Assembly (NCBI GenBank): GCA_008080515.1
Contig: VIKH01000002.1
Location: forward strand, 57 to 64,056
Direction of reading: 5' to 3'
From: Gallionellaceae bacterium
GTDB lineage: Bacteria; Pseudomonadota; Gammaproteobacteria; Burkholderiales; Gallionellaceae
Length of the DNA: 64,000 bases
Shown here: one piece after another, positions 32,293 through 54,060 of the stretch
Layout of the letters: every line of letters starts with the position of its first letter
Position numbering within the stretch: position 1 is the first letter of the stretch
Notes under the pieces: generated by a model
Seen by the model: the letters and a program-made list of their open reading frames with translations, nothing else
What the model was told of the DNA's origin: nothing
The model's database searches: none
Made by a program: the position numbers and the translations under genes

Positions 32293-32790
32293 TCAATCTT
32301 CCTCGCTATCAACCCTGGCCGGTTTTCGCTCTGCGGGCTTGGGTTGGGGGGGGCTTTCCAGAAGAAGTTGCTGTCCTACCTTGACTCTGACAGGTTGCAT
32401 TTTTCCCGGAACCGTAACCGCCAGGGATTCCGGTGCCCGCTCGCCGCTGCTATCGGCGTTTTGCGCCACGCCGTTGATCCACACGGTGCGCCCCCCGCCG
32501 CGCTTCTGCACGATGCCGTTGACTGTCAGCACGGAAGCGCTGCCTGATTCTTCCCCGCCAGCTTCGATGTTTTCCGGCTTTTCTGGCGTGACGACTTCCT
32601 TCTGCGCTGCGCTGCCCGCATCACCTCCCGCCTTGCGCGCGCGCGCCTGCTCGAACTGAACGCGCTGTTCCGGGGTAAAGAACAGACGGCCCAAGCTGTC
32701 CGCTTGGGCGGGCGGCGCTATCACGGCAGCGGCGAGCGCCCCGGCACAAACGGGCATTAACCGGCGACGGCTGTTGCTGTTCTGGTTCAT
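32293..32790 (-). CDS. Periplasmic protein, tentatively MshK-like
   Basis: Signal peptide (RRRLMPVCAGALAAAVIAPPAQA), LGRLFFTPEQRVQFEQ motif, VLTVNGIVQKRGGGRTVWINGV. Its ATG overlaps the upstream stop as ATGA (32787-32790). Last gene of the machine operon. Confidence 0.45.
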   Translation of the reverse strand: MNQNSNSRRRLMPVCAGALAAAVIAPPAQADSLGRLFFTPEQRVQFEQARARKAGGDAGSAAQKEVVTPEKPENIEAGGEESGSASVLTVNGIVQKRGGGRTVWINGVAQNADSSGERAPESLAVTVPGKMQPVRVKVGQQLLLESPPQPKPAERKPARVDSEED

Positions 32791-33413
32791 TTCGGCGCGC
32801 TCCTGTTCCTCAACGTCACCCACCCGCCCGCACATTCTGCCCTGACCTGTTCCGTAGCGCCGTAATCATCCGCCGATGGTGCGGAAACCGTGCGCTCCAG
32901 CGCGCACTTGTCGAGCATGAACCAGCCCTTGATTTCGCTGCGCACGGAATCGAGAAATGCCGTCAACTGCTCTTCGTGCAGCAAATCGAACTGCAAGGTC
33001 ATATCGCTGCGGTTGAGTTCGAAATTGCCGCTATCCAGCGCCGGAGCCGGCGTATAGGTCTTTTGCGGGAGGATGGCATACTTGAAGCCTATCGGGCCCG
33101 ACACCTTATGCCGCTGGCGGATTCTATCCAAGCCTTCAACCCAGTCCAGGCGCTGGTCGTTGCCGATGACGTTGCGCTCCAGCAGCGCGTTGTATTCCAG
33201 AGTGTAAGTACGCATGTTTTCCCGGTCTGCCTCGGCGGTGGCGAGCCGGGCGCGCGTTTCAAGCATTTGACGCCGCGCTTCCTTCTGGTCGCGCTGGGCT
33301 TGTTCGACAAAACTTTCGCTGGCCAGGATGGTTGCACTACCAACACCCAAAATGAGCAGGAACGCGAGCAGGCTCCAGCGGATATGCCGGAAATCAGATT
33401 GGGAAAAAGTCAT
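32787..33413 (-). CDS. PilO/MshJ-like bitopic assembly protein
   Basis: N-terminal TM (WSLLAFLLILGVGSATILA), then a coiled coil, then a globular periplasmic domain. ATGA overlap with the upstream stop (33410-33413). Confidence 0.55.
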   Translation of the reverse strand: MTFSQSDFRHIRWSLLAFLLILGVGSATILASESFVEQAQRDQKEARRQMLETRARLATAEADRENMRTYTLEYNALLERNVIGNDQRLDWVEGLDRIRQRHKVSGPIGFKYAILPQKTYTPAPALDSGNFELNRSDMTLQFDLLHEEQLTAFLDSVRSEIKGWFMLDKCALERTVSAPSADDYGATEQVRAECAGGWVTLRNRSAPK

Positions 33414-34912
33414 GGCGCAGGCCTCCATGCAAGTTTCAGCGAAAACCGTGCGGGGTTGGTGGTTTCATCGGCACTGGCCGCGATGCTGCCGCCCGGGCTG
33501 ATATCCAGCGGCAGAGCCAATACCGTCACGCCGTAGCCGTGCTGGGCCAGAGACTTCTGGAAACGTTCCAGGTAATCCAGCACATTGCGGTAGTCGCTGG
33601 CGGAAAACCCGGTCAGTTCACCGTCAAGCAAAATGACTTGGGCGGGGTAGCTTGCAGCCGCACCATTTTGTGGCGCTGGCTCTGCCGCCGCGCTCGCCTG
33701 CCAGGAAAGTTTGTTGAGGTGGAGGCGCGGGAAAGCATCCATACTTTTGCCAAGCCCCTCCAGAATTTTTTGTGGCGGGGGTGAATAGTTCTCCAGCTTG
33801 CGTGCCAGCAGAACGGCGGTTTTCATGTCGGAGGCAGCGGCCAGCGTGTTCGGGAATCCTGCGGTGATTTGTTGCGCCTGTTGCGCCAATCTGCCCGCCT
33901 GCGCCTTGAGTGCCTCGTTGTCTTCGTTCAGCGAACGGCCTTCCCAGATGTTGGCGATACCCCACAGCAGGCTGGACACCGCCACCACCGCGCTCAACCA
34001 GAGCAGGCTGCGGCGGATACGCAACAAATCAAAGAAATGGGTATGCGCCGCTGCCGCATAGTTGCTGCGCTGCGGCTTGGTGGCGAGCAGGTGCAGGAGC
34101 AGCGGCGTTGCGTCCGAGCCACCGTAGTCCGCCCTCGATTTGATGCGCTGCCCCGCTTCCCGGATGTCGAGGTAGGTGTAGCGCATGTCGGGGTTGTCGA
34201 TAAGCTTCGCTTCCAGCTCGCGCCGGTCGTCCGCATGGCAAACGACAAGCACGTCCAGCGCCTGCCCGACCGGAATCAGGCTCAAGCTCTTCAGGTATTG
34301 CTGGGTGCGCACGGCTTCCGTGGCAACCTGCTCGCTGAACGGCCTGCCCGCGACGATGGGGGTCAGGCGCGAAAAACGCAGCAGCCGGGCATCGAAATAG
34401 GTTTGGCGCAACCCGGCGTGTTTTTCCCACGATAGCAGCAACAGGTGCGCGGAGGGGCTGTTCCACGCCAGTGGGGCGCTGATGTTGGGGACGGAATAAA
34501 TGCCGACCAGCGGTATGCTCTGCGCCAGCATGATATTTAGCCACGGGGAGATCAGGGCGGGGTTGGTCAACGCCGAGAACAGCATCTCGTCATCGCGCCG
34601 CCCTTCTTTTTGCCGCAGCAACAACGACGCCTGCCGGAACGGGGTGTTGCGGTAAAACTGTTCGAACTTCCGCCGTATCTGTTCGGCGCGGTCGCCTCCG
34701 CGCAGGTGGGGCAAGGTTTCGTGGCGGAAGTCTTCCTCGATCAGGTCGGTGAGCAGATAGGCGGGATGGGGATTGGCTTGCAGGAATGCGGCAAAGCGCT
34801 CTTTGCCGTCTGCGCTGTCGGCGAAACGCTGCGGCGGGGAAAGCGCGCCGCTTTTCCAGATATAAGCGTGGAAGTTTTCGGCGCCAAGGAAGAGGATGGT
34901 TTTGCTGGACAT
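33410..34912 (-). CDS. PilM/PilN-fusion-like (MshI-like) assembly protein
   Basis: 500 aa. Cytoplasmic ~300 aa, one TM (LLWLSAVVAVSSLLWGIANIW), then a coiled coil and periplasmic domain. Architecture resembles MshI; the sequence itself is not diagnostic. Confidence 0.5.
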   Translation of the reverse strand: MSSKTILFLGAENFHAYIWKSGALSPPQRFADSADGKERFAAFLQANPHPAYLLTDLIEEDFRHETLPHLRGGDRAEQIRRKFEQFYRNTPFRQASLLLRQKEGRRDDEMLFSALTNPALISPWLNIMLAQSIPLVGIYSVPNISAPLAWNSPSAHLLLLSWEKHAGLRQTYFDARLLRFSRLTPIVAGRPFSEQVATEAVRTQQYLKSLSLIPVGQALDVLVVCHADDRRELEAKLIDNPDMRYTYLDIREAGQRIKSRADYGGSDATPLLLHLLATKPQRSNYAAAAHTHFFDLLRIRRSLLWLSAVVAVSSLLWGIANIWEGRSLNEDNEALKAQAGRLAQQAQQITAGFPNTLAAASDMKTAVLLARKLENYSPPPQKILEGLGKSMDAFPRLHLNKLSWQASAAAEPAPQNGAAASYPAQVILLDGELTGFSASDYRNVLDYLERFQKSLAQHGYGVTVLALPLDISPGGSIAASADETTNPARFSLKLAWRPAP

Positions 34913-34952
34913 CAGGCCGCACCTCCTGGCCGATTTTTCACGGAGCTATTCG

Positions 34953-36155
34953 TCACATTTGCACCTTGCTGATGATGTCGTAGATCGGCGAAAGAACGGA
35001 CAGCATCACCCATCCGAGCAGCAGGCCGAGGATGATGGTCATGGTCGGCTCGATCATGACCTGCACTTTCTTGATCGAGTCTTTCACGTCGCGGTCGTAA
35101 AAATAGCTGACGTTGCGCAGCGCCAGATCGAGTTGCCCGGTCGCCTCGCCCACCTTGAGCATGCGGATCACCAGCGGCGGGAAAACGCCGGTATTCTGGA
35201 AGCTTTGCGTCAGGTTTTTGCCGGACTCGATTTCCTGCATGACTTGCTCGAGGCTCCTCGCGATCACCTGGTTGTTCGCCAGATCGCGCGAGTTGGAGAT
35301 GCAATCCAGTATGGTGATGCCGGAGCCGTACATGATGGCAAAAGTGTTGGCGAAGCGCGCCAGGATGATTTTGCGCAGGATAGGGCCGGTGGGCCAGATG
35401 CGCAACTTGATGCTGTCCAGATGGTATTGCAGGCCGGGGTTGTAGGCCACCACCAGCTTGAACGCCGCGAACAGCGAAACCGGCAGCCCGAGAATGAGGT
35501 ACCAGTAATCCACGAACACGGCGGAGGTGGCCAGCAACAGCCTGGTTTGCAGCGGGATGTCCTGCCCCATGCCCTTGATGAAGCCGACCAGTTGCGGTAC
35601 CAGGTAAATCATCAGGAAAAAAGTGATGGCGATCACCACGGTGCCGACGAACACCGGATAGATCATCATGTTCTTGGTTTGCGAGGCCATTTCGTCCTGC
35701 CATTTCAGCGCCTCGGTGAGATGCCCGAACACGTCTGCCAGCCTCCCGCTTTCTTCGCCCGCGTGGGTCAGGCTGAGGAAAATCTTGTCGAACGCGTCCG
35801 GGTGTTCCGCCATGGCTTGCGACAGCTTCTTGCCGTTCTGGATGGATTCCACCATGTTGGCGATGATTTCGCGAAATCTCTGGTCGTCCATGCTGTCGCG
35901 CAAATCGCCCAAGCACTCCAGCAGGGGCACACCGGCGCGCAGGAGCTGCTCCAGGTTGAAGAAGAAAGTAATCAGATCCGAACGCTTGATTTTTCTGGTG
36001 CCGAGCGCGGTTTTCTTTTCGTCTACTTTGGCGTGAACCAGATCCAGCCCCATGCGCTTCAGACGCAACTCGAGATCCACCACATTGGCCGCATCCTGCA
36101 AGCCTCTGGCGGTTCTGCCTTGGTCGTTGATCGCTTTGTAGGAATACAGCGCCAC
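34953..36155 (-). CDS. GspF/PilC/MshG-family inner-membrane platform protein
   Basis: 400 aa. Duplicated GspF domains (...LLRAGVPLLECL..., ...MYGSGITILDCI...) and three TM blocks. GTG start. Confidence 0.93.
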   Translation of the reverse strand: MALYSYKAINDQGRTARGLQDAANVVDLELRLKRMGLDLVHAKVDEKKTALGTRKIKRSDLITFFFNLEQLLRAGVPLLECLGDLRDSMDDQRFREIIANMVESIQNGKKLSQAMAEHPDAFDKIFLSLTHAGEESGRLADVFGHLTEALKWQDEMASQTKNMMIYPVFVGTVVIAITFFLMIYLVPQLVGFIKGMGQDIPLQTRLLLATSAVFVDYWYLILGLPVSLFAAFKLVVAYNPGLQYHLDSIKLRIWPTGPILRKIILARFANTFAIMYGSGITILDCISNSRDLANNQVIARSLEQVMQEIESGKNLTQSFQNTGVFPPLVIRMLKVGEATGQLDLALRNVSYFYDRDVKDSIKKVQVMIEPTMTIILGLLLGWVMLSVLSPIYDIISKVQM

Positions 36156-36172
36156 GTTATTTGCCTTTACTT

Positions 36173-36248
36173 AGAGAAGGGGGAAGAGGGAAGGGGAAAG
36201 GGTAAAGCCAGCTTTGCGTTTTTCACCCTTCACTCTTCACTCTTCTCT
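36173..36248. other. 76-nt imperfect palindrome (purine arm / pyrimidine arm) with a G-quadruplex motif
   Basis: AGAGAAGGGGGAAGAGGGAAGGGGAAAGGG... faces ...CCCTTCACTCTTCACTCTTCTCT. G-runs at 36179-36183, 36188-36190, 36193-36196 and 36200-36202. It fills the 98-nt gap between the ATPase stop (36254) and the platform start (36155). Confidence 0.6.
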
Positions 36249-36253
36249 GTTTT

Positions 36254-37954
36254 TCAGCTCATGCGGTCGGTCAGATCCACCACCCGCGCTACCTCGGACA
36301 GCGAGGTGATGCCTTGCAACACGCGCCGCAGGCCGTCCTGCGCCAAAGGCCGGAAGCCTTTGTCCAGCGCCGCCTGTTTCAGGTCGCGGATGCTGGCGCG
36401 GCGCGCCACCAGATCGTCCAGATCGTTGTCCATCTTGAGCAGCTCCATGATGGCGAAGCGCCCGTTATAGCCCTGGTGGCGGCACAGGTCGCAACCGGCT
36501 GCGCGGTACAGTGTAATTTCCTCGTCGTGGCCGATGCCGAGCAGCCTGCGGTCCAGGTTATCCGGCTGATACGGATATTTGCAGTAAGGGCACAGCACGC
36601 GCACCAGGCGCTGCGCGATGATGCCGATGATGTTTCCGGCCATGATGTCCGGCAGGATGCCGATGTCCAGCAAGCGGGGGATCGCGCCGATCGCCGAGTT
36701 GGTGTGCAGGGTGGAATATACCTGGTGGCCGGTCATGGCGGCGCGGAACGCCATTTCCGCCGTGGGGTGGTCGCGTATTTCGCCGACCAGGATGATGTCC
36801 GGATCCTGCCGCATCATGGAGCGGATGCCGTTGGCAAAATCCAGCTTGGCCGCCTCGTTTACCGAGGTCTGGCGGATCAGCGGGATAGGGTATTCCACCG
36901 GGTCTTCCAAAGTCATGATGTTGACCGATTCGGTGTTGATATGGTTGAGCACCGAATACAGCGTGGTGGTCTTGCCGCTGCCGGTGGGGCCGGTCACCAG
37001 CACGATGCCTTCCGGTTTGGCGATAATCAGTTTGAGCGTCGAAAGCGAGGCTTCGTCCAGCCCGATCTTGTCTATCGGGACGATACCTTTCTGCCGGTCC
37101 AGGATGCGCAGCACCAGGTTTTCGCCGTGCGTGGTGGGGTGCGAGGCGACGCGGAAATCAATGGCGCGACCGGACAGGCGCAGCGAGATGCGGCCATCCT
37201 GCGGTGCGCGGGTTTCCGCGATGTTCATCCCGCTCATCACTTTCAGGCGCACCACCATGGCCGGCCAGAAGCTCTTGTGCAGGCTGCGTACTTGGCGCAG
37301 CACGCCATCAATGCGGTAGCGGATGCGCAGAAAGCTGCTTTCCGGCTCGAAGTGGATGTCGGACGCGCCCTGCTGCACCGCCTCGGTGAGCAGGGCGTCA
37401 ATCAGCCGCACTACCGGCTGGCTGAATTCGGTGACGCCCTGGTGCAGCGTCTGGTACTCCATCTCGCCCGGTTCGATTTCGTGCAGGATGCCGTCTATGG
37501 ACAGCTCGAAACCGTAATACTGGTCTATGGCGCGCAGGATGTCCGACTCGCTGGCGAGTTGCGTGGTCAGGCGGTATTCATCCTTGAGCAGGGCGCGCAA
37601 CTGGTCCAGCGCGATGATGTTGTCGGGGTCGGCGATGGCCAGGGTGAGGTGCTTGTGCAACACGTCAACCGACAGCGGCAGCAGTTGGTAGCGCCGCGCG
37701 ATGTCTTTGGGGATCAGTTTGATCGCGGCCGAATCAATAATGACGGTGGAGAGGTCAACGCTTTCCTGCCCCAGGTTCTCCGACAGCACATCGCGGATGG
37801 TGGCTTCGGACAGAAAGCCCAGCCCCACCAGCAGGCGGCCCAGCGGCTGGTGGTTCTTGTTCTGCTCCTGGACAGCGATGCGCAACTGGTCTTCGCTGAT
37901 GACGCCCTTTTCCAGCAGCATGCGTCCTAGGGGTTGTTGGGTGTTTGCAGCCAT
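36254..37954 (-). CDS. GspE/PilB/MshE-family secretion ATPase
   Basis: 566 aa. Walker A GPTGSGKTTT, Asp/His boxes, tetracysteine CPYC...CDLC. The N-terminus carries two MshEN-like motifs (PLGRMLLEKGVISEDQLRIAVQEQ, PLGRLLVGLGFLSEATIRDVL). Confidence 0.95.
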   Translation of the reverse strand: MAANTQQPLGRMLLEKGVISEDQLRIAVQEQNKNHQPLGRLLVGLGFLSEATIRDVLSENLGQESVDLSTVIIDSAAIKLIPKDIARRYQLLPLSVDVLHKHLTLAIADPDNIIALDQLRALLKDEYRLTTQLASESDILRAIDQYYGFELSIDGILHEIEPGEMEYQTLHQGVTEFSQPVVRLIDALLTEAVQQGASDIHFEPESSFLRIRYRIDGVLRQVRSLHKSFWPAMVVRLKVMSGMNIAETRAPQDGRISLRLSGRAIDFRVASHPTTHGENLVLRILDRQKGIVPIDKIGLDEASLSTLKLIIAKPEGIVLVTGPTGSGKTTTLYSVLNHINTESVNIMTLEDPVEYPIPLIRQTSVNEAAKLDFANGIRSMMRQDPDIILVGEIRDHPTAEMAFRAAMTGHQVYSTLHTNSAIGAIPRLLDIGILPDIMAGNIIGIIAQRLVRVLCPYCKYPYQPDNLDRRLLGIGHDEEITLYRAAGCDLCRHQGYNGRFAIMELLKMDNDLDDLVARRASIRDLKQAALDKGFRPLAQDGLRRVLQGITSLSEVARVVDLTDRMS

Positions 37955-37975
37955 GCCGTATATTGCGCCACGCCT

Positions 37976-39352
37976 TCAGGGGGTGGCGGCCAGCTCGTTC
38001 AGACGCCGTTGCGTTTGCGTGCGGTCAATTCTTGAAGGCTTGGCGGCGCCGTCCAGTTGCAGCGCATGCCGGTAATGTTGAGCAGCGAGCCCGCTTTTCC
38101 CCAGGTGATCCAGGCTGACCGCCAGGTTGAAAGCAAACTGCGCGTTGTCCGGCTCCAGCTTGCTGGCGCTGAAATAGGATTGCTGCGCGTCGCCCCAGCG
38201 CGATTGCTCCGCGTACAGGTTGCCCAGCGCGAAGTGCAGCGCGGGCGATTGCGGCTGCTGCGCGAGCAGCAGTTTCAGGCGGCTCTCAATGCCTGCCTCA
38301 TTGCTCTGGGAGAGCAGCGACAACATGCCGGCGTGGGCGATGGGGTCGCGCGGGTCGAGCGCCAGCACCTGGCGGTAATAGTGTGCGGCTTCATCGTCCC
38401 GAGACTGCTGTTGCGCGATGGCGGCCATACCCAGCAATGCGTCACGATTTTTTGCATCCAGCTTCAATATCTCGCCGTAGCGCTGTCCGGCAGCGTTGAG
38501 ATCGCCGTCACGATAAGCCTGCCAGGCTGCCAGCAAAGCAGGGGCGACGGGGTTGGCTTGCTGCGGGCTGCGTTCGATGCGGATGCCGGGCGCTGGCGGA
38601 GCGGGGAATGCTTCTTCCCCGACCGTTTCATTTTGCGCGGGTGGGGCCGTTTCTTGCTTTGGCTGCGCTGCCAATCTTCCCCGCCCCCCCTGTTGCATGA
38701 GGGGGGGCGAGGTTGCGGCCAGGCCGGCGCTTGCCTCAACTGCCGCCGTTGCCTTTTTTAGCAAAGAAGAGGGGGGTGGGGCTGCCATACCGACGTCCGA
38801 GCCACCCGCTGCCCCACCTTCAGGCAAAAGGGGGGTGGGAGGGTTTTGTGCAGACGTTTCTGCGGCAGCAACCTGCGCGACCGGCAAGTTTTCCTGCGTT
38901 GGCGTTGCGGGCGCTGGAGCGGGTGCGGGAGGTGGAGCAGCATTAACAACGGGTGCGGGTGGAGGATTGGGATGGGGGCGCTGTGCCTGCGTGGGCGGGG
39001 TGATTTCGCGCCAGACATAATATCCGCCGGCGGCGGCGAGCAACGTGCCGCTGATGAGCGCGATGGGGATAATGCCCAAGCGCCTGCCTTCGCGGGTGGG
39101 TGCGGATTTGGCGGCAAACAGATTTTTTCCTGCCGCGCGGGGGGCGTCGCGTGCTACGGCGGGTGCGCTGCCGGAAGTACGCCCTTCTGGCAGCTTCGGT
39201 TCAGACGGAGGGGCACCCTCCTGCGATGCGGCTGGAGCGGGAGACCCCTCGAGGTGCAAGGCTTCCGTTAACTGCGGCTCAATGGCCTTGTGGACACCGG
39301 TTTGATCCAGCGCGAGCTCGATTTTTTTTCTGGCGTCCAGCAGCAGGTTCAT
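37976..39352 (-). CDS. Bitopic Pro/Ala-rich TPR protein (MshN-like)
   Basis: 458 aa. One TM (IIPIALISGTLLAAAGGYYVW), a PPPAPVVNAAPPPAPAPAPA low-complexity linker, and C-terminal TPR units (AWQAYRDGDLNAAGQRYGEILKLDAKNRDALLGMA...). Confidence 0.7.
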   Translation of the reverse strand: MNLLLDARKKIELALDQTGVHKAIEPQLTEALHLEGSPAPAASQEGAPPSEPKLPEGRTSGSAPAVARDAPRAAGKNLFAAKSAPTREGRRLGIIPIALISGTLLAAAGGYYVWREITPPTQAQRPHPNPPPAPVVNAAPPPAPAPAPATPTQENLPVAQVAAAETSAQNPPTPLLPEGGAAGGSDVGMAAPPPSSLLKKATAAVEASAGLAATSPPLMQQGGRGRLAAQPKQETAPPAQNETVGEEAFPAPPAPGIRIERSPQQANPVAPALLAAWQAYRDGDLNAAGQRYGEILKLDAKNRDALLGMAAIAQQQSRDDEAAHYYRQVLALDPRDPIAHAGMLSLLSQSNEAGIESRLKLLLAQQPQSPALHFALGNLYAEQSRWGDAQQSYFSASKLEPDNAQFAFNLAVSLDHLGKSGLAAQHYRHALQLDGAAKPSRIDRTQTQRRLNELAATP

Positions 39353-41142
39353 GGCCTTGTGCCGGCACCCACTTTTTTGCCGGTTTCCTTGAAGAAGTTC
39401 TCATCCGGCAGGCTGCTGCGGAACTCGCTGTAGTCGGCGGTTATGCTGGCATCCTTGATAACTATCGGTCGCAGAAAAATCACCAGCTCGGTCTTGGTGG
39501 TAGTGTCGTTGCGGTTCTTGAAGATGCCGCCAGCCAGCGGAATATTGGCCAGCCCGGGGATAGCGTCGGTGAAGTTATCTATGCGATCTTCCATCAGGCC
39601 ACCCATTACCGCAATCTGGTTGTTGTCTATTTTTAGTACCGACTCCATTTCTCGCACTTGGGTTTGTGGAATGCGGCTGGTTACGCCTGCTGCTTTCAGC
39701 ACCGGATTGGGGTCGTTAATGTAACTGAGCAAGCGCGAAATAGAGGGGCGCAAATTGAGCAGTACCGTGTCGCTGTCGCTGATCTGTGGGGTGACGCTCA
39801 TGGTAAAGCCGACAGAAGTGGTGTTAATGGTTGTTGTGTATGTCGTGTTCCCTGGGCCGCTAACGGTCGGAGGATCAATTTTTACATCAACGGTGAAATA
39901 CACCAGATTATCCACCACGCGTAGCACAGCGGTCTGATTGTTCATGACGCTGAGCTTGGGGCTGGACAATACTTTTACCGTGCCGAACGATTCGAGCAAG
40001 GAGACCGTCGCGCTCAGGTTGCCCAGATTTGCGGTGGGGTTGGCGTAATTGAGGATGAACATGCTGCCGGTGTTAGCGCTTGGCAAACCGGCAGTACCGG
40101 CCTGGGTCAACTGAAAACCTTTTGCGCCAAGCCGCAGGCCTTGCCAGTTGATGCCCTGCTGGTACTGGTCGCTCAAACGCACTTCCACCACTGTCGCCTC
40201 AATCAGCACCTGGCGCCGCGCGCTGGCCATAATTTGGTCCACAAACTCCTGAATTTTTTCATGCTGCTTGCCGGTGGCGCGAACCGTGATGATGCCGTTC
40301 TCCGGGTTTGCGATCACCGAAGATGCATCGCGGAAAGTGCTGGTGCGCGTGACAGTAGTGCCGCCCTCCTGCAAGAATGCGGGGTTCGGGCTGTTTTCTA
40401 TACCCGGCGCTTTGACGGTAGTTTTTTTGCCGCCGGTTGTTTGCTGGGCTCCCGTGCCGGTGGTGCTGATCGCACTGCTTTGCTGCACCAGTGTTTCGCT
40501 GGAACCGGATGGCAATATCTTGTCGGTCTCGCGCAGGATGTCCTTGATGTTCTGGGTCAGTGTTTCCCAGAAGTGGTTTTTGGAAACGTTCTTGATGGCC
40601 AGCATAGAGTTGCTGCCTGCGCCGCTCGTACCTCCCGCCGCACCAGAGCCAACTTGAGTTGAACCTGAAATCGCGCCGTCCGAATCGCGCGCCATGTTGA
40701 CGTAATCAATCTTGTAGTGCTTGAGGAAAGGCGAATCCGGCATGACGATCAGGTTCGGCCCGTCCAGTTCGTAGCGCATCTCTACCTGCTTGGCGATGCG
40801 GTTGAGGATTTGCGGCAGGGTCTGGTCTATCGCGTTGAGGGTGACGGTTCCCTGTATGCCGGCATGGATGTCGAGATTGATTTTTGCGTCACGCGCCAGC
40901 GCAAACAGAATTTCCTGCGCCGGAACATTGGTCACGACCACGCTGTAAGTTTCGGCTTTGGGCGCGGCTGCGGGCGGGGGGAGCGAGATGGCACGCTTGA
41001 TCGGCTGCGGGATATTGGCAGCTTGCGCGGCCTCGGCGGTTTCGCTCCGGAGGTGCTGGGCAGAAGGTTTGATAGGCTGCGTGCCGCAGGCAGAGAGCAG
41101 GGCGAAGCTGAAACACATTAACCATACATTGCCTGAACGCAT
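39349..41142 (-). CDS. Secretin (MshL/PilQ/GspD family), probable lipoprotein
   Basis: 597 aa. Lipobox LLSAC at the N-terminus. Conserved secretin C-domain (...VKVLSSPKLSVMNNQTAVLRV...IPGLANIPLAGGIFKNRNDTTTKTELVIFLRP). Confidence 0.9.
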   Translation of the reverse strand: MRSGNVWLMCFSFALLSACGTQPIKPSAQHLRSETAEAAQAANIPQPIKRAISLPPPAAAPKAETYSVVVTNVPAQEILFALARDAKINLDIHAGIQGTVTLNAIDQTLPQILNRIAKQVEMRYELDGPNLIVMPDSPFLKHYKIDYVNMARDSDGAISGSTQVGSGAAGGTSGAGSNSMLAIKNVSKNHFWETLTQNIKDILRETDKILPSGSSETLVQQSSAISTTGTGAQQTTGGKKTTVKAPGIENSPNPAFLQEGGTTVTRTSTFRDASSVIANPENGIITVRATGKQHEKIQEFVDQIMASARRQVLIEATVVEVRLSDQYQQGINWQGLRLGAKGFQLTQAGTAGLPSANTGSMFILNYANPTANLGNLSATVSLLESFGTVKVLSSPKLSVMNNQTAVLRVVDNLVYFTVDVKIDPPTVSGPGNTTYTTTINTTSVGFTMSVTPQISDSDTVLLNLRPSISRLLSYINDPNPVLKAAGVTSRIPQTQVREMESVLKIDNNQIAVMGGLMEDRIDNFTDAIPGLANIPLAGGIFKNRNDTTTKTELVIFLRPIVIKDASITADYSEFRSSLPDENFFKETGKKVGAGTRP

Positions 41143-41178
41143 GTATCCCCCTTGTTATGTTTGGGTGCAGCTAGTGTC

Positions 41179-41193
41179 GCAATGTTGCGGCCA
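41179..41193 (-). promoter_or_regulatory. Candidate sigma54 promoter TGGCCGCAACATTGC upstream of the secretin gene
   Basis: On the minus strand, GG and GC have the exact -24/-12 spacing of TGGCACG-N4-TTGC. It is followed by ~35 nt and an AAGGGGGA Shine-Dalgarno before ATG 41142. A sigma54 activator is encoded 1.7 kb upstream in the same direction. Confidence 0.45.
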
Positions 41194-41264
41194 GCAACGC
41201 CATCCGCCGGGCGATTGCCGGCAAACTCTAACATCTTCACCCGACATACTCAACCGCGCTCGCC

Positions 41265-42842
41265 CTAGCGGGGCGGGGTTTGAGCGCTGCCCAGCAGGTA
41301 GAGCGACGGCGCGAACGCCTTGCGGTAGCGTTGCGGCAGTTGCTCCATCCCGGCGCGCGCCGCCTCGATATCCGGGTAATAACCATACAGCACCCTGAAA
41401 CCGGCTTTGCCGTTCAGCGTGATCGGCAGAACATAGATTTCGGAAAGTTTGCCCAATCCTTTAGCGCGGGTCAGGAATCCTTCCATGCGCGCCGGTTGCG
41501 CGTCTTCGGTGTAGAAAAGCTGGATGCTGGCGCTGTTCATCCCGGCTTTGGCGAACATCTCCCGCGTTGCCGTGGCGCGCTGTTGCAGCAGGGTGGTGGG
41601 CCGCGTTTGCCTGGTTTCGCCGCCACCGGTATGGGTGGCGGCTTCCGGTTGTGCTGCCGCAGGTATCGGGGGGAGGGCGGCTGCTACGGCACTGATTGTC
41701 GCTGTCGGGGCAGATGCGGATGGGGCAGCCGCCGCGACATCGGAAGCCGGAGCCGAAACCGTAATGCTCGGCGCAACAGCGGATGCCGCTTCCGGTGCCG
41801 GCACGGTTGGCACCACGGCAGAAGCGGCGGTAGGCGCGTCTGGAGCCGGGTCAATTGCGGCCTTAAGCTCGGCGGGCGCAGGGGCGGGGACGGCCCTGGC
41901 GGGCGCTGTTTCAAAGGTAGCGGATTTCTTGCCCGCGCTGCCGAACAGCCAGCCAGCGCCGATCAGCAGCATGGCGGCAAGGGCGGCGATGACGGCTGCG
42001 GCGGCAATTTTATGATTGCTCCGCGAGGGTGGTTGCGGCGACAGTTCGCTGTCGCGGATGGCGGCCTGTACGTGTCGCTCTTCGATGCTGTAGGTGTCTT
42101 CCACGAAGGCCGCGAGCAGCGATTTGTCGGCGAGGATGTTGACGCGCCGCATCAGCCCCTGCGAGGCCTTGCCGATCAGGGTGACGGCGGCAGCGGAAAA
42201 CAGGTTGGGGCCGCGGTAACCGGCGGTGCGCATGCGGAACAGCAAATAGGCCTCGATCACCTGCTGGGACAGCGGCAGCATGGTGAAATGATGCACGATA
42301 CGATCCTTGAGCTGGCGCATGTTGGGCTGGTCGAGCTTGGCGTTCAGTTCGGGTTGGCCGAACAGCACGATTTGCAGCAGCTTGTTGTTGCCGATCTGGA
42401 GGTTGTACAGCAGGCGCAGCTCTTCCAGGGTATCCAGCGGCATGGCGTGCGCTTCGTCCACCAGTACCACCACGCGCTTGCCGCCCGCAGTCTTTTGCGC
42501 CAGCAGGTTTTGCAAGGTCTGCATGATGACGTTGACGCGCTGCCCTTCCAGGTTGAGGCCGAGGCCGTCGGCGATAGCGTAGAGCATTTCTTCGCGCGAC
42601 AAACTGGGGTTGGCAAGATAGACGCTTTCCACCTGCTGCGGCAGGCGCTCCAGCAACATGCGGCACAGCATGGTTTTGCCGCTGCCCACCTCGCCCGTGA
42701 CCTTGACGATGCCTTCGCTTTCGGTGATGGCGTAGATCAGCGCATCCAGTATTTCTCCCCGGCTGGCCCCGGAAAAGAAAAAATCGGTGACGGGAGTGAT
42801 CTTGAAAGGCTGGCTGTCGAGGCCGAAGTGTTCCAGGTACAT
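41265..42842 (-). CDS. ExeA/MshM-type AAA ATPase with Ala/Pro-rich linker and SPOR-like C-terminus
   Basis: MYLEHFGLDSQPF..., Walker A GEVGSGKT, Walker B VVVLVDEAH. TM (IAAAAVIAALAAMLLIGAGWLF). C-terminal ...ASIQLFYTED...GFRVLYGYYPDIEAARAGMEQLP. Confidence 0.85.
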   Translation of the reverse strand: MYLEHFGLDSQPFKITPVTDFFFSGASRGEILDALIYAITESEGIVKVTGEVGSGKTMLCRMLLERLPQQVESVYLANPSLSREEMLYAIADGLGLNLEGQRVNVIMQTLQNLLAQKTAGGKRVVVLVDEAHAMPLDTLEELRLLYNLQIGNNKLLQIVLFGQPELNAKLDQPNMRQLKDRIVHHFTMLPLSQQVIEAYLLFRMRTAGYRGPNLFSAAAVTLIGKASQGLMRRVNILADKSLLAAFVEDTYSIEERHVQAAIRDSELSPQPPSRSNHKIAAAAVIAALAAMLLIGAGWLFGSAGKKSATFETAPARAVPAPAPAELKAAIDPAPDAPTAASAVVPTVPAPEAASAVAPSITVSAPASDVAAAAPSASAPTATISAVAAALPPIPAAAQPEAATHTGGGETRQTRPTTLLQQRATATREMFAKAGMNSASIQLFYTEDAQPARMEGFLTRAKGLGKLSEIYVLPITLNGKAGFRVLYGYYPDIEAARAGMEQLPQRYRKAFAPSLYLLGSAQTPPR

Positions 42843-44291
42843 TCAGGATTCTCCTGCGGTATTCTGAACGGCCTGGTGCTTCTGCAACGCTTCCATGCGG
42901 CTGTACAGCGTGGTGCGGTGCAGGCCCAGCAGCTTTGCGGCTTCGCTGACGTTGCCGCCCGCAAGCTTTATGGCAGCATCGATGTAGTAGCTACCCTGCT
43001 CCTGCAGCAGTTTGTCGAGGCTGAAATTCGGCTGCTGCAGCAAGGTGTCCATGGCCAGCTTGCGCGGGTCGTCAGTCGCTCCGGGAATGTGATCGCTTGC
43101 GGCGATCTGGCCCAGATCGAGTTCGGCTTCCAGTTGTTCGGCAGCGACCGTCCGTCCCGGATATTTGGTGGCGAGGCGGATGACGATATTGCGCAGCTCG
43201 CGCGTGTTGCCGGGAAAACCGTAGCGCTCCCACAGTTGTATGGCAGCAGCATCGAGACAAAACGGGGCGCTGGCGGACTGGCTGGCGTAAAAATCGCGGA
43301 AATGGTTGAGCAGCAGCATCTTGTCCGCGCCCATGTCGCGCAACGGCGGAACCTGGATGGTGAACACGTTGAGGCGGTGGTACAGGTCGGTACGAAAGCA
43401 CCCGGCGCGCACTTCGCCGCGCAAGTCGCGGTTGGTCGCCGCAATGATGCGGGCACTGCTCTTGCGCATTGCCGATTCGCCGACGCGCTGGTATTCCCCG
43501 TTCTCCAGCACGCGCAGCAGCTTGGCTTGCAGCTCCAGCGGCAACTCCCCGATCTCGTCGAGAAACAGGGTGCCGTTTCCCGCTTCCTCGAAAAAACCGG
43601 CCTGGGCGGTGTTGGCGCCGGTAAATGCACCCTTGCTGTGCCCGAACAACGCGGACTCGATCAGGCTGGGAGAAACCGCAGCGCAGTTGAACACTACGTG
43701 GGGTGCCTTGCTGTTCGGCCCGAGGACGCGCAACGCCGCCGCGACCAGCTCTTTGCCGCTGCCCGATTCGCCCTCTATCAGAACCGGGAAAGGGGTGGCG
43801 GCATACAGCGCGATCTGGCTGCGCATCGCCTGAACTGCCGGGCTGTGCCCCACGATGCCGAGCAACGCTTCTTCTTGCCTGCGGCTTCTTTGCTCGCCCT
43901 GTTGGGCCAGCAAGGCATCGCGCAACAGCTTCCTGATTTTGTCAGGAGAGCAGGGCTTGGCGACAAAATCGCATGCGCCGAGGGTGCGCGCGTGACGCGC
44001 GTTGGATTCCTCGTTCTGCCCGGACAAAACGAGGATTTTGATGTCCGGCGAGTGTGCCAGCAGTTCGGCGATCAGGTGAAACCCCTCATCGGGCCGGTGG
44101 GGGGTGGGCGGCAGCCCCAAATCCACCAGCGCCAGTTGCGGTCGGTCGGGCATTTCCCGCAGCTGGCCGATGGCGCTGGCGCGGTTCTCGGCCACGCGGA
44201 CATCGAACTCGGCGGCGAGCGACAACTGCAACGTTTCGCGGATGAGAGGATCGTCATCCACGATGAGCAAGATGGGAAGGGCGTTGTTCAA
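42843..44291 (-). CDS. Sigma54-dependent response regulator, PrsR-like (PEP-CTERM-box type)
   Basis: The receiver has the DLGLPPTPHRPDEGF motif that I associate with PrsR. AAA+ domain (GESGSGKE, GAFTGA) and C-terminal Fis-type HTH (AAKLLGLHRTTLYSRM). Its stop abuts the exeA-like ATG (TGAATG). Confidence 0.85.
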   Translation of the reverse strand: MNNALPILLIVDDDPLIRETLQLSLAAEFDVRVAENRASAIGQLREMPDRPQLALVDLGLPPTPHRPDEGFHLIAELLAHSPDIKILVLSGQNEESNARHARTLGACDFVAKPCSPDKIRKLLRDALLAQQGEQRSRRQEEALLGIVGHSPAVQAMRSQIALYAATPFPVLIEGESGSGKELVAAALRVLGPNSKAPHVVFNCAAVSPSLIESALFGHSKGAFTGANTAQAGFFEEAGNGTLFLDEIGELPLELQAKLLRVLENGEYQRVGESAMRKSSARIIAATNRDLRGEVRAGCFRTDLYHRLNVFTIQVPPLRDMGADKMLLLNHFRDFYASQSASAPFCLDAAAIQLWERYGFPGNTRELRNIVIRLATKYPGRTVAAEQLEAELDLGQIAASDHIPGATDDPRKLAMDTLLQQPNFSLDKLLQEQGSYYIDAAIKLAGGNVSEAAKLLGLHRTTLYSRMEALQKHQAVQNTAGES

Positions 44292-44406
44292 GTATGGGTT
44301 CCGGTATGTGCAACGCGCAGAATAGCCCGCAACGGCTGCAAGTTCAACAGCTTGAGGTCGGCCCGGAAACGGGTGCGCCCTTCTGCGCGAAGCGAGCGGC
44401 GCAGAT

Positions 44407-44988
44407 TCAAGGCGGAAGGGCTGGCTGTGCGGGGTCGGTGGAGGCGTCGGTTTTTTGATCGGCGCCCCGCGCCACAGGCGACAGGGATCGCGGCATCACC
44501 CGGCCCGGCGCGGCAAGGAAGATGGAATCTGGTGGAACGTCGCGGGTGACCACGCAGTTAGCTCCGACCATGGAACGATCACCGACCGTGATGCCACCGA
44601 GCACGCGCGCACCGGGGTAAATATCAACATTGTTGCCGATTTTCGGAGTTCCTGGAATTTGTCCTGTACCCAATGTTACGTCATGAAAAATGACGCAGTC
44701 TTCGCCGATTTCGACGCCCCTGCCGATCATGACGTTGGTCGGATGGATGAGGCGCAGGCCGGCGCCGATGCGCGCCCCCCCGCGACCGGCCCACAGGTGG
44801 ACGTGGTAGAAAAAAAACGGCAGCTTGAGGAGCCGGTACAGTACCCACATCGGGACGCGAAGGATAGCAGGCAATGAATACACCCACATTCCGAACCGGT
44901 AGACCGCTACGATCCGAAATCCGGGGTTGGCGTACCACCGGCCATCATGCGAGTTTCTTGTTATGTCGCGCCGCAGATTCTCGAGCAT
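44407..44988 (-). CDS. Left-handed beta-helix O-acetyltransferase (CysE/serine acetyltransferase-like)
   Basis: Hexapeptide repeats (IGAGLRLIHPTNVMIGRGVEIGEDCVIFHDVTLG...IGNNVDIYPGARVLGGITVGDRSMVGANCVV). Start set to the Met at 44988; ORF-track start 45054 would overlap the upstream gene. Confidence 0.75.
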   Translation of the reverse strand: MLENLRRDITRNSHDGRWYANPGFRIVAVYRFGMWVYSLPAILRVPMWVLYRLLKLPFFFYHVHLWAGRGGARIGAGLRLIHPTNVMIGRGVEIGEDCVIFHDVTLGTGQIPGTPKIGNNVDIYPGARVLGGITVGDRSMVGANCVVTRDVPPDSIFLAAPGRVMPRSLSPVARGADQKTDASTDPAQPALPP

Positions 44989-45010
44989 CGGAGTTGTTCG
45001 ATGAAGCAGT

Positions 45011-45841
45011 TCAGCGGGCCGGTTCTGGTGCGGGCCGAGCCGGAATAGCGGCAAGCGCCGATACCAGCTCGCGCGCCGCGCGCAGTTTTCCGGCTGTGTT
45101 CAGGTGGCCGCCGTCATCGGTGTAGGCGGCAGCCATCGCCGGCGAGGCGGTACCTTCCCAATCCACGGTTACCGTCGTTCCGTCCGGTGCGGTGGATTCG
45201 ATCCGCGCCAGATCGAAAATCGGCTCTTTCCCCTGATACGCCTGGCGCATCAATGCGTTAAACTCCTCGCGGCGGCGGTTTTCGGCAACACCGTAGGGCA
45301 CGCGCCCGAGCAATTTTTTCAGCCCTGCTTTAAGCCCGCCCTGTGCGATGGTGAGCGGAGCGGTCACATGCATGAGAGTCGTGCCGGGATGTTTTGCGTG
45401 GAGGGCATCCATCGTGGCACGGTAGCGGGCAAACAGCGCTTTTGCGTCGGTGTCGGCAGAAATGTCCACGTAGCAGAACTTGACCAGCGCGATATCCAGT
45501 CCGGCGGGCTGCTGCCCCATGGCCTGCTCGAAGCTCTGGAGTTTCAGGAGGGGATCACCATTTTTTGCAACCGCAGTATGCCCGAACGTTGCGGGTGGCA
45601 CCTCGCCCGCGGTCGGCGCTTCTGTCACGCGAATCGACACACCCGCTTTTTCCGCAAGCTGTTTGACCCCGTCGAGCAGGTTGCTCCCAACCGATTGGTG
45701 GCCGAAGTAGATGCGTCGTTGCGCGACCCGATCAAGCTCCGCGCGCAGGTTCGCATCCGCATCGGCAGCTTGAACGTTGGTGGAGCCGATAGCTGCCGTC
45801 AGCACGAGCAAGGTATTTGTCATGAATTTTGTTCCAAACAT
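45011..45841 (-). CDS. Secreted protein, possibly SGNH-type hydrolase
   Basis: Signal peptide (LLVLTAAIGSTNVQA). IYFGHQSVG near the N-terminus and DDGGHLN near the C-terminus resemble SGNH blocks I and V. Weak call. Confidence 0.4.
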   Translation of the reverse strand: MFGTKFMTNTLLVLTAAIGSTNVQAADADANLRAELDRVAQRRIYFGHQSVGSNLLDGVKQLAEKAGVSIRVTEAPTAGEVPPATFGHTAVAKNGDPLLKLQSFEQAMGQQPAGLDIALVKFCYVDISADTDAKALFARYRATMDALHAKHPGTTLMHVTAPLTIAQGGLKAGLKKLLGRVPYGVAENRRREEFNALMRQAYQGKEPIFDLARIESTAPDGTTVTVDWEGTASPAMAAAYTDDGGHLNTAGKLRAARELVSALAAIPARPAPEPAR

Positions 45842-45903
45842 GGCGGTTCCTCCATCAACAAGCTCCCCACTGCGGAATGCCGTGATGCTTTACCCCGCCG
45901 GAT

Positions 45904-46152
45904 TCAGGCCGGGTTTTTCTTGCGCGAAACGAAATTGGCTATCCGCTCGATGGAGTCAAGATTTTCCGGCAGCATCTCGCTGTAGTCAACTTTGATGCCG
46001 AAAGTTTCCTCGATAAAAAAAATAACCTCGAGCATGCCGGTCGAGTCAACCGTGCCGCTGTCAAGCAGAGACGTGCCATCTGCCAACATGGCCGGATTTG
46101 CCACATAAAAGTTTGTGGTTATAAAAGCGCGAATCTGTTCTTTTAATTCCAT
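45904..46152 (-). CDS. Acyl carrier protein
   Basis: 82 aa; LDSGTVDSTGMLEVIFFIEETFGI carries the phosphopantetheine-serine motif (DS-x-G/L). Confidence 0.85.
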   Translation of the reverse strand: MELKEQIRAFITTNFYVANPAMLADGTSLLDSGTVDSTGMLEVIFFIEETFGIKVDYSEMLPENLDSIERIANFVSRKKNPA

Positions 46153-46243
46153 TCAGTTATCCCCGATTCCTTATAATTAGGGTCTGGATTTTAACCTATT
46201 CGGGGTATCCGTGTTAACTGGATGCCCACCGTAAGGAGCTTCG

Positions 46244-47816
<1,573 letters not shown>

Positions 47817-47833
<17 letters not shown>

Positions 47834-49826
47834 TCTTGTCTATGTCGGTTCTGGGTTTGACGCCGCCGCTCCCACCAGGGCAACTCGCGATGAATTGCCG
47901 GTAAAGAAGCTGGGTGGACAGCGCCCCCACCAAAGCCATATTGTCGGCGTTCGAGAGTTGGCCGTCCCGCCCCCGCGTGCGGCATTTGCGCAGAAGCTGG
48001 GCGATGGCCTGCGGCTCGAACACGTTGGCTTCGCGCAGCGCGGATTCGGAAAGCGCTTCGCCGATATAGTCCGGCGCATCCTCCGCGATGAATGAAAGCG
48101 CATCCGGCGCGCGGTAGGGCTGTTTTTTCCGCTCCAGGATTTCGCGCGGCACCACACCTTCCGCCGCGCGCTTTACGACGTGCTTCTCGTCCAGCACACG
48201 CAGTTTGTAAGCCGGGGGCAGCGAGTCGGCAAGCGCGATGACGTTCTGGTCGAGAAAGGGGAAACGCCCTTCCACGGAGTGGGCCATCAGCATCCGGTCG
48301 CCTTGCGAGGAAAGCAGATAACCTGACAGGAGAGTGCGGATTTCGATGTGTTGATCCTGCGCCAGCGGGCTCCAGCGCGCGAAGTCGGCGGGCAGTGCGG
48401 CGAGAAATTCGGCGACGGTGTCGCGCCCCGCAACCGCCGCCTGCATGTCCCCGGACAGCAATCGTTTGAGCGCGCCGGTGGTGTGCCAGCGGGTATCGTG
48501 CGCGAAACCGGGCGTTTGGTAACCCGCGAGGTTGCGCCCGAAAAATTGCCGCGACATGGCCTGCTGAGCGACCGGCGAGCGTGCGAGATAGGGATAAAGC
48601 CGCTCCAGCAGCCTCGGGCGCCATGCGGATTGCGGCTGGTGCCCCCAGAAGCGGCGCACTTTGCCTTCGCGAAAAATATCGTAGCCGGCGAACATTTCGT
48701 CCGCGCCCTCGCCGGTAAGTACAACCTTGACGCCAGCATCACGAACAAGCTTGGAGAGCAGGAAAAGCGGTGCCGGAGCGGTTCTCAATATGGGGCGCTC
48801 GGCGTGGTAAATCACTTCCGGAAATACCTTGGCGATATCGCCGCGCGATACGACCACCTCGTGATGCTCGCTACCTAGCACGTTCACCATTAAGCGCTGG
48901 TATTCTGTCTCGTCGTATTCGGCGTCATCGAACCGCAGCGAGAAAGTGTGGAAACGATCACCGGCAAAACGCCGCCCGAGGGCGGCGACAAGGGAGCTGT
49001 CCAGCCCGCCGGAAAGATAGCTGCCGACCGGCACGTCGGCGCGTAACATGCAGAGCGAGGCAGCATCATCGAGCGCCTTGCGCACCGCGACCACCGCATC
49101 TTCGAGCGTTCCCGGAAACCGGCTGCCCGGATCGCCCGGCACAGGATAGCGTGGTGTCCAATAGGCACGCTCGCGCACCGTGCCGTTCTCGTAAACCCGG
49201 ATATGGCCTGGCTCCAGTTCGCTCACGCCACGGAACACGCCCTGCGGTGGTGCTACGGTCCAGAAGGTGAAAGTCTGGGCGATGCCTGCCGGATCAAAAG
49301 CTCTCGGAATCGCGGCATTTGACGCGAAGATAGCTTTGACTTCGCTGGCAAAATAGAGATTGCCGCCGTGCTCGCAAAGATGGAGCGGGCAGATGCCGGC
49401 ACGGTCGCGGCACAGCACCAGACGCTTGGCTGCCGAATCCCACAAGGCCACGGCCCATTGCCCGTTCATGCGCTCGAAGGCGGCTTCGCCCCAGGCGCGG
49501 TAGGCGTGAAGGATTACCTCGGTGTCGCTCTGGGTGCGGAACGGGTGGCCGAGCCCGGCCAGTTCCCGGCGCAGTTCCACATAGTTGAATATCTCGCCGT
49601 TAAACGCGATCCAGGTTGTGCCGTTCTCATCCGCCATCGGCTGCTGGCCGGTAGCGAGATCAATGATGGATAAGCGCGCGTGTGCGAGCCCCGCGTGATC
49701 GTCCCGATAGACGCCGAATTCGTCCGGGCCGCGATGGGTGAGCGCGCCGGCCATGCGCAACAACGCTGCCTTGCCCGGCGAATGCGCACCATCGCTGAGG
49801 CGCACTATCCCGGCGATGCCGCACAT
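47817..49826 (-). CDS. Glutamine-hydrolysing asparagine synthase-type amidotransferase (AsnB family)
   Basis: 669 aa; N-terminal nucleophile MCGIAG and PP-loop SGGLDSS. Confidence 0.95.
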
Positions 49827-49829
49827 GGG

Positions 49830-51901: not shown

Positions 51902-51910
51902 GAGAATAAA

Positions 51911-52417: not shown

Positions 52418-52421
52418 CATC

Positions 52422-54043: not shown

Positions 54044-54060
54044 CTAAAAGGGGATTTATC

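Follow-up and report, generated by a model that had tools for sequence, protein, structure and literature searches.

The locus considered here is a set of nine genes, labeled g1-g9, in a 64,000-nt stretch of DNA (hereafter the window) from a Gallionellaceae bacterium. The window represents nearly all of contig C121 of a 2.9-Mb genome assembled into 183 contigs, and its best protein matches come from metagenome-assembled genomes (MAGs) of Nitrosomonadales/Gallionellaceae. The genes are nine intact open reading frames (ORFs) at 32293-44291, all of them co-directional on the minus strand. We consider it probable that they belong to an 11-gene type IV filament cassette, as the half that encodes the machine, and that this cassette forms a conserved lineage of its own beside the mannose-sensitive haemagglutinin (MSHA) pilus. 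The nine products were searched against Pfam and NCBIfam models using the cut-offs of the respective models. In the order of transcription, the genes are as follows.

42843-44291, minus strand: g1, NtrC-family response regulator and sigma-54 activator (Pfam Response_reg, Sigma54_activat and HTH_8)
41265-42842, minus strand: g2, ExeA/GspA/MshM-like P-loop ATPase (AAA_22, 102.9 bits)
39349-41142, minus strand: g3, MshL-type lipoprotein secretin (Pfam Secretin, 116.5 bits)
37976-39352, minus strand: g4, bitopic TPR protein at the MshN/TadD position (several TPR families of Pfam)
36254-37954, minus strand: g5, extension ATPase of the GspE/PilB/MshE class (T2SSE 429 bits, MshEN 61.9 bits)
34953-36155, minus strand: g6, inner-membrane platform of the GspF/PilC/MshG type (T2SSF twice, 180 bits)
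33410-34912, minus strand: g7, GspL-like protein or PilM-PilN fusion, the marker of the family (fold match, AlphaFold2 and Foldseek)
32787-33413, minus strand: g8, bitopic protein, GspM/PilO-like by position and topology only
32293-32790, minus strand: g9, small secreted protein, PilP/GspC-HR-like by position only

Parts of the machine

A preliminary description of this DNA, made from its letters, had seen nine tightly coupled genes running in one direction, and the ORF coordinates, overlaps and short gaps bear this out. The g1/g2 junction is TGAATG (a gap of 0 nt), ATGA overlaps join g3/g4, g7/g8 and g8/g9 when the second-Met starts at 33413 (g8) and 32790 (g9) are taken, and the other intergenic gaps measure 21, 40, 98 and 122 nt. 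All nine ORFs are full length and their catalytic motifs are intact. A 1089-aa ORF on the plus strand (41280-44549) was rejected as an antisense artefact of the GC-rich g1/g2 region, with no family support.

In terms of Msh components, the genes follow the order M-L-N-E-G and then an I/J/K-like trio. The reference order in Vibrio is mshIJKLMNEG, and the difference from it that had been noticed previously is real. For comparison we used 20 related loci, from MAGs with names, and a further 20 loci fetched from other families of Gammaproteobacteria, a class that in GTDB takes in the former Betaproteobacteria. The g1-g9 order recurs in about 12 Gallionellaceae MAG loci and about 15 loci in other families of the class. 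Because both the content and the order of g1-g9 recur across MAG loci, a chance arrangement is unlikely. Throughout the relatives g1 stays the first gene of the cassette.

The ATPase g2 has one transmembrane helix (residues ~276-294) followed by an Ala/Pro-rich linker and a C-terminal SPOR-like domain. The SPOR match (residues 450-510) scores 21.3 bits against a cut-off of 21. It recurs at the same C-terminal place in the g2 homologues of three loci, L013 (22.2 bits), L005 (20.9 bits) and L038 (18.0 bits), and is absent from short homologues. Of the two features previously assigned to this protein, the ExeA/MshM-like ATPase holds, and the SPOR tail is real yet marginal and not universal.

The secretin g3 carries a lipobox (LSAC) at residue 16. 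Its top NCBIfam model is MshL (TIGR02519), at 248.5 bits against a cut-off of 250.2; the GspD and PilQ models give 163.7 bits (cut-off 351.35) and 96.2 bits (cut-off 284.35), respectively. Its best matches in the PDB are GspD chains, which score better than PilQ. The next protein, g4, consists of a transmembrane helix (residues ~91-109), a Pro/Ala linker and a TPR region (residues 265-440), and occupies the place of MshN, a homologue of TadD (PMC6668835).

The ATPase g5 carries Walker A and two CxxC motifs. Both the GspE model (527.9 bits, cut-off 630.25) and the PilB model (525.0 bits, cut-off 675.65) stay under their cut-offs. Ranking PDB sequences was tried as a means of classification and rejected, because PilF, PilB and GspE score almost equally and no class could be assigned. 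Public assemblies contained no exact entry for the ATPase. The model of the cyclic di-GMP (c-di-GMP) motif, NF053729, is passed at 64.4 bits (cut-off 38). Two tandem MshEN motifs, 24 residues each, occupy residues 8-31 and 37-60 with a 5-residue spacer. The MshEN motif binds c-di-GMP, and the relaxed form of the motif matches g5 twice (PMC5013675). The platform protein g6 has three hydrophobic segments and scores 294.6 bits with the GspF model, below the cut-off of 424.

The remaining three proteins are sequence orphans. No Pfam or NCBIfam match was found for g7, g8 or g9 even at E = 10, which includes PilM_2, PilN and PilO of Pfam, and profile searches of the three against PDB sequences gave nothing significant. 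For g7, the fold supplies what the sequence does not. In the AlphaFold2 model, built from an alignment of 110 homologues (mean pLDDT 91.8), residues 1-285 form an actin-like cytoplasmic domain, 288-351 a long transmembrane/coiled-coil helix and 397-496 an alpha/beta domain in the periplasm. In the PDB, Foldseek matches the model to PilM (5eox and 2ych, E ~1e-9) and, at a TM-score of 0.54-0.60 relative to the target, to the EpsL, GspL and PulL cytoplasmic domains. The fold thus confirms the earlier assignment of g7 as PilM/N-fusion-like, and the architecture is that of GspL. There are 1783 relatives of g7 among representatives, and no paralogue was found in its own genome. In g8, which is conserved in 29 loci, an N-terminal transmembrane helix (residues 11-29) precedes a coiled coil, and two Cys are conserved in the C-terminal domain. 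In g9, a signal peptide is followed by an LGRLFFTPEQR motif and a small beta-rich domain, as judged from an alignment of 20 homologues.

Probable fibre genes g10 and g11

According to the preliminary description, the operon contains neither a pilin nor a prepilin peptidase gene, and for 32293-44291 this is correct; no prepilin motif occurs there. The idea that the machine lacks a fibre is not supported, since relatives carry two additional genes, g10 and g11, after g9, and the genome under study has its own pair on contig C152. The pair directly follows g9 in 26 of the 32 loci with enough downstream sequence. A prepilin gene comes after g9 in 11 of 12 Gallionellaceae loci having downstream sequence, and among the 20 related loci only L001 has enough downstream sequence but lacks g10/g11 at this place. 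In the sample from other families the pair stands after the machine in 15 of the 20 loci, most of which keep the g1-g11 order; where it is not adjacent, the pilin family lies just past the fetched stretch or at distant loci. Altogether, the g1-g11 order is kept in many other families, including Thiogranum longum and two invertebrate symbionts.

In its own genome the pair is intact at C152:18796-20936 on the minus strand, flanked by uvrA and by a 217-aa secreted ORF that is thermonuclease-like by eye. It has been separated from the operon, as apparently also in the close relative L001. The gap between uvrA and g10 (L021 ~9100-9345, on C152) holds ~80 start-less codons that by eye correspond to the C-terminal half of a polysaccharide deacetylase. 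This stretch may have been left behind as a scar when g10/g11 were moved by a rearrangement.

Such a rearrangement invites the idea that the pilins were lost and that the machine is a decaying, non-functional remnant in this genome. The operon indeed has g9 as its last gene, opposite a convergent LuxR-type two-component pair, and the position of g10/g11 beside the apparent deacetylase remnant suggests a past rearrangement. However, none of the nine ORFs is shortened, their catalytic motifs and translational coupling are preserved, g10 and g11 on C152 are intact as well, pilin loci remote from the machine are also seen in other carriers that have complete genomes, and models of MSH systems allow mshA to be a loner gene. 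We therefore regard decay as quite improbable.

The prepilin g11 (~230-280 aa) has a canonical G|F-T/S-L-x-E motif and passes the cut-offs of N_methyl and TIGR02532. In wider searches it matches best to GspG and GspH, in their N-terminal parts, with GspG scoring 33-45 bits against a cut-off of 88.85. The second protein, g10, varies strongly in length, from ~350 to 550 aa in Gallionellaceae and from 348 to 1119 aa over all cassette loci. Its N-terminus (...QRG|AALLvmLvI...) is a pilin-type hydrophobic helix without Glu5. In the structural model of g10 (pLDDT 76, pTM 0.78) the N-terminal helix is 52 residues long and the head is rich in beta structure; a fold search against the PDB returned no match for the head. 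GspK-type cap pilins are also without Glu5; relating g10 to GspK/PilX was nevertheless not supportable beyond the N-terminus, the fold search being empty. The two proteins have the motifs AL-GYA, G-LPCPD, GRLPW-TLGL, LWYAVS and VAVI-APG in common, and judging from these sequences they are paralogues.

Matches to the g10 family were also found within very long open frames of 2621 aa (G066:C2:53679-54443) and 2768 aa (G264:C1:68685-69473). G066 is Candidatus Doriopsillibacter / a Persebacteraceae bacterium and G264 belongs to the same family; both have small genomes (1.5-1.7 Mb). The frames are far from the machine loci and look like giant modular pilin-like proteins.

Another potential source of a fibre lies in the window itself.

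51463-58431, plus strand: type IVa pilus (T4aP) minor-pilin operon fimU-pilV-pilW-pilY1-pilE, 7 kb upstream of g1

This operon codes for FimU/GspH-like, PilV, PilW-like, 1336-aa PilY1/PilC-like and PilE-like proteins. It could be supposed to supply the fibre of the machine, as it is only 7 kb from g1 and offers five prepilin-type proteins together with the PilY1-like one. We give this hardly any credence. None of the 20 related loci has these genes next to the cassette. With 81.3 bits the PilV protein passes its T4aP equivalog (cut-off 52.2), and together the genes make up a standard T4aP priming complex. The genome has separate PilC/PilD (C183), PilQ-like (C85) and PilT genes (two PilT-like ATPases on C150). 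Moreover, the machine co-occurs with a dedicated g10/g11 pair. The preliminary description had allowed for cognate pilin genes immediately outside the operon; the cognate pair proved to be on another contig, and the pilins that do lie nearby are unrelated T4aP ones.

How closely the machine and the pilin family are associated was examined in 401 genomes (321 genera) drawn evenly across GTDB Gammaproteobacteria. The g7 profile detects the machine in 75 of the 401 genomes, or 60 of the 321 genera, which is roughly one fifth. With the g10 profile, 82 of these genomes are found to have the pilin family. Both are present in 68 genomes, g7 only in 7, g10 only in 14 and neither in 312, which corresponds to an odds ratio of 216 (Fisher p 3e-54), uncorrected for phylogeny. 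All eight machine-bearing genomes that were checked singly have the pilin family, some of them at remote loci. Since g10 and g11 adjoin the machine in most relatives and the two families co-occur, the machine is not fibreless. The split arrangement is a minority yet recurrent state.

The lack of a prepilin peptidase gene, previously taken as unusual, can be understood in the same way. All MSH loci are without a prepilin peptidase, and mshA is treated as a 'loner' gene (Denise et al. 2019, PMC6668835); therefore, the absence of both pilin and peptidase from the operon is ordinary for this lineage. The genome has a single Peptidase_A24 gene, on contig C183 beside a PilC-like gene. Thus, the original anomaly has an ordinary explanation.

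The cassette is common in iron- and sulfur-oxidising bacteria, and its carriers include chemolithotrophs and animal symbionts, some of them of invertebrates. Public records label its proteins only generically or as 'hypothetical'; the entries of Thiogranum longum, Candidatus Doriopsillibacter and a Galathealinum endosymbiont, for example, read 'GspE/PulE family protein'. The proteins g7-g10 escape detection by current Pfam and NCBIfam models. Literature searches returned only generic mentions of an 'MSHA cluster' in Gallionellaceae, and no paper on this cassette was found. Overall, the machine is of a known kind, and the cassette represents a widespread variant of it that is so far undescribed.

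Regulator and neighborhood

The first gene, g1, codes for a receiver domain, an AAA+ domain with GAFTGA at residue 221 and a Fis-type helix-turn-helix. That a sigma-54 response regulator heads the operon, as described previously, is evident from these domains. Its supposed PrsR specificity is not: the NtrC model (353.9 bits) scores higher than the PrsR model (TIGR02915; 340.4 bits, cut-off 502.6), and both scores are far below the cut-offs. Thus, g1 is a generic member of the NtrC family and stands no nearer to PrsR than to NtrC itself. It is an orphan regulator, because no kinase gene accompanies it in the relatives examined. The sigma factor gene, rpoN, is present on C35.

PrsR-type control had suggested a tie to PEP-CTERM/exosortase loci, and the locus could accordingly be read as an export apparatus linked to exopolysaccharide or PEP-CTERM proteins and working with the adjacent acyl-ligase, AsnB and acetyltransferase genes. 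TIGR02915 and the PEP-CTERM ATPase model TIGR03015 are among the top NCBIfam matches. The upstream flank (44407-50864) codes for an LbH acetyltransferase, an AMP-forming ligase, an AsnB-type amidotransferase and a NadE-like protein, and the genome has one exosortase. However, g2 reaches just 217.8 bits with TIGR03015 (cut-off 324.5), and g1, as noted, is also below the PrsR cut-off and scores higher with NtrC. None of the related loci has these flank enzymes, whose genes separate the cassette from the minor-pilin operon; the one exception is the downstream side of the near-identical L001. The sole exosortase gene is on contig C4, and no linkage to an exosortase locus was found in the related loci. 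We consider this explanation very unlikely, and the proposed tie to exosortase systems is not upheld. Elsewhere the flanks differ: in L015 the gene before the cassette runs divergently and codes for an ABC-transporter ATPase that by eye is MlaF-like, and in L013 it ends before cysS.

Within the operon two noncoding features were recorded.

41178-41193, minus strand: candidate sigma-54 -24/-12 element TGGCCGCAACATTGCG, 36 nt before the secretin ATG, scoring 12/15
36156-36253, minus strand: g5-g6 intergenic hairpin (RNA fold -31.4 kcal/mol, z-score -4.3)

A search of the window and of L021 with the sigma-54 consensus gave fewer matches than expected by chance, and a scan for sigma-70 promoters and terminators gave matches at chance level only. 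The hairpin of the 98-nt g5-g6 gap is a long purine/pyrimidine fold without a U tract; transcript processing, transcript stability and differential expression are possible roles.

Proposed mechanism and relation to known systems

The steps proposed below draw on what is known of ExeA/GspA, MshE, GspL/M and PilP. The ATPase g2 and the TPR protein g4 would assist the assembly of the lipoprotein secretin g3 through the cell wall. The trio g7, g8 and g9 would form an alignment complex, in which the ATPase is clamped to the platform and joined to the secretin. At high c-di-GMP levels, binding of the nucleotide by g5 would favour polymerisation, that is, extension of the fibre. The prepilin g11 would build the fibre, and g10 would cap or decorate it at the tip, displaying its variable head. 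The single PilD-type peptidase (C183) would mature g11 and probably g10, and the two PilT-like ATPases encoded on C150 may retract the fibre. Retraction is stated for V. cholerae MSHA by the title of PMC9815625.

The most likely output of such a machine would be a c-di-GMP-responsive surface fibre for attachment or biofilm formation. Within the overall reading of the locus, we rate an adhesive surface fibre as slightly better than an even chance.

The principal rival is a machine resembling a type II secretion system (T2SS), in which g11 and g10, instead of an external pilus, make a short pseudopilus in the periplasm that, like a piston, pushes folded substrate through the secretin. Several observations point in this direction. 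The best family matches of g11 are the N-terminal regions of GspG and GspH; g7 has the fused GspL architecture, with its best TM-scores against EpsL/GspL cytoplasmic domains; g2 is built like ExeA/GspA and has a wall-binding tail; among PDB chains, GspD is a better match for the secretin than PilQ; and the operon has no retraction ATPase. On the other hand, no genes for GspC, H, I or J were found in any cassette locus examined, and there are just two pilin-like proteins. The GspD, GspE and GspF models remain under their cut-offs, and the top secretin model is MshL. The ATPase is of the MshE type, whose gating by c-di-GMP is typical of adhesive MSHA pili (PMC4624765, PMC5013675). In addition, g10 is large and hypervariable, resembling an exposed adhesin, and no conserved candidate substrate gene flanks the cassette. 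Taken together, we regard a T2SS-like piston as unlikely, though deserving more weight than the other alternatives considered above.

Several points nevertheless count against the surface-fibre reading or parts of it. The GspG-like g11 and the GspL-like g7 would leave room for a secretion role. Both MshEN motifs of g5 open with PLG and not with the canonical RLG, whereas distant relatives of g5, as read from their N-termini, retain Arg at the motif start; the PLG start may change the c-di-GMP affinity in this clade, and the predicted affinity of g5 is thus uncertain. The role of g10 as a tip adhesin is a guess, its head being without a structural match, and the PilO/GspM role of g8 and the PilP/GspC-HR role of g9 are inferred from position or topology. 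A crude scan of relatives revealed no conserved counterpart of the candidate sigma-54 element before the secretin gene, and no conserved sigma-54 site was found before g11. Finally, the odds ratio given above carries no correction for shared ancestry.

Attachment, the formation of biofilms, secretion and the colonisation of hosts all depend centrally on type IV filaments. Linking the machine with its split fibre genes prevents 'pilin-less' machines from being mis-scored, and the cassette yields a simple marker set for surveys. It also points to what may be a minimal fibre of two subunits, with c-di-GMP and sigma-54 as its gates. A more far-reaching proposal, which we put forward only tentatively and think rather doubtful, is that within the type IV filament superfamily the cassette stands as a branch of its own at family level, of a rank similar to that of MSH and T2SS, with a fibre of two paralogues, a head fold unlike that of any solved pilin and g10 as a modular, fast-evolving tip adhesin.

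The genome contains a second MSH-like system, which occupies contig C56:1-16278 (L056), all on the minus strand. Its genes run in the order MshE-like ATPase with a c-di-GMP motif, platform, prepilins, DUF6701, PilM/PilN/GspM-PilO-like, secretin and ExeA-like; compared with Vibrio, its two halves seem to have changed places. The ExeA-like gene is truncated by the contig end. The locus codes for four regex-clear prepilins, one pilin-like protein without Glu5 and a 1202-aa DUF6701 protein. The PilM-like, PilN-like and GspM/PilO-like components are separate proteins, and the lipoprotein secretin scores 241.2 bits with the MshL model. In a maximum-likelihood tree of ATPases, the comparison set of which consisted of own-genome paralogues, the cassette ATPases from all families form a tight group, and those encoded on C56, C79, C111 and C53 fall together on a long branch (99/98 support). 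Because C56 holds the fuller MSHA content and the ATPase clades differ, the cassette is separate from the MSHA system of this organism. As far as the gene content and the tree allow, it is a distinct sister lineage beside MSH rather than the organism's MSHA orthologue.

Among known tip or modular proteins, g10 can be compared with PilY1/PilC and MshQ. It is a paralogue of the cassette prepilin and not a beta-propeller, and its head has no PDB match; like them, it joins a pilin-type helix to a large head, whose length varies between lineages.

Compared with T2SS (Gsp/Eps/Exe), the cassette is without GspC, H, I, J, N or ExeB, its ExeA-like ATPase has a SPOR-like tail instead of PG_binding_1, its extension ATPase is predicted to be c-di-GMP-gated, and the second pilin is giant and variable. 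Its scores fall short of the equivalog models of both T2SS and T4aP. What it has in common with T2SS is the fused GspL-type protein, the GspG-like N-terminus of the prepilin and a secretin that is nearer to GspD than to PilQ among solved structures. The ExeA-like ATPase with a periplasmic wall-binding tail is also reminiscent of the Aeromonas ExeA-ExeB module.

From MSHA the cassette differs in gene order, M-L-N-E-G-(L-like)-(M-like)-(P-like)-g10-g11, with the sigma-54 regulator first. Its g7 is a single fused GspL-like protein, whereas the PilM-like and PilN-like MshI parts of MSHA are separate, likewise in C56. There are two pilin-like proteins versus about seven in MSHA, and no DUF6701/MshQ-type protein. 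Of the canonical MSH accessory set, separate MshI/MshI2, J and K, the minor pilins B, C, D, O and P and MshQ were not found, and the presence of MshM and MshG rests on the generic families AAA_22 and T2SSF and not on profiles specific to MshM or MshG. The place of the major pilin MshA, which is allowed to be a loner, could be taken by g11, a prepilin with a GspG-like N-terminus. The part set itself, namely MshL, ExeA/MshM, the TPR protein, the MshEN ATPase and the platform, supports the original assignment of an MSHA-like type IV filament machine. With the MSHA pilus of Vibrio cholerae, Shewanella and Aeromonas (PMC6668835) the cassette shares MshL as the top secretin model, the ExeA/MshM ATPase, a TPR protein at the MshN position, an MshE-type ATPase with tandem MshEN motifs, a GspF-type platform, a locus without a peptidase gene and a pilin gene that is separable from the machine.

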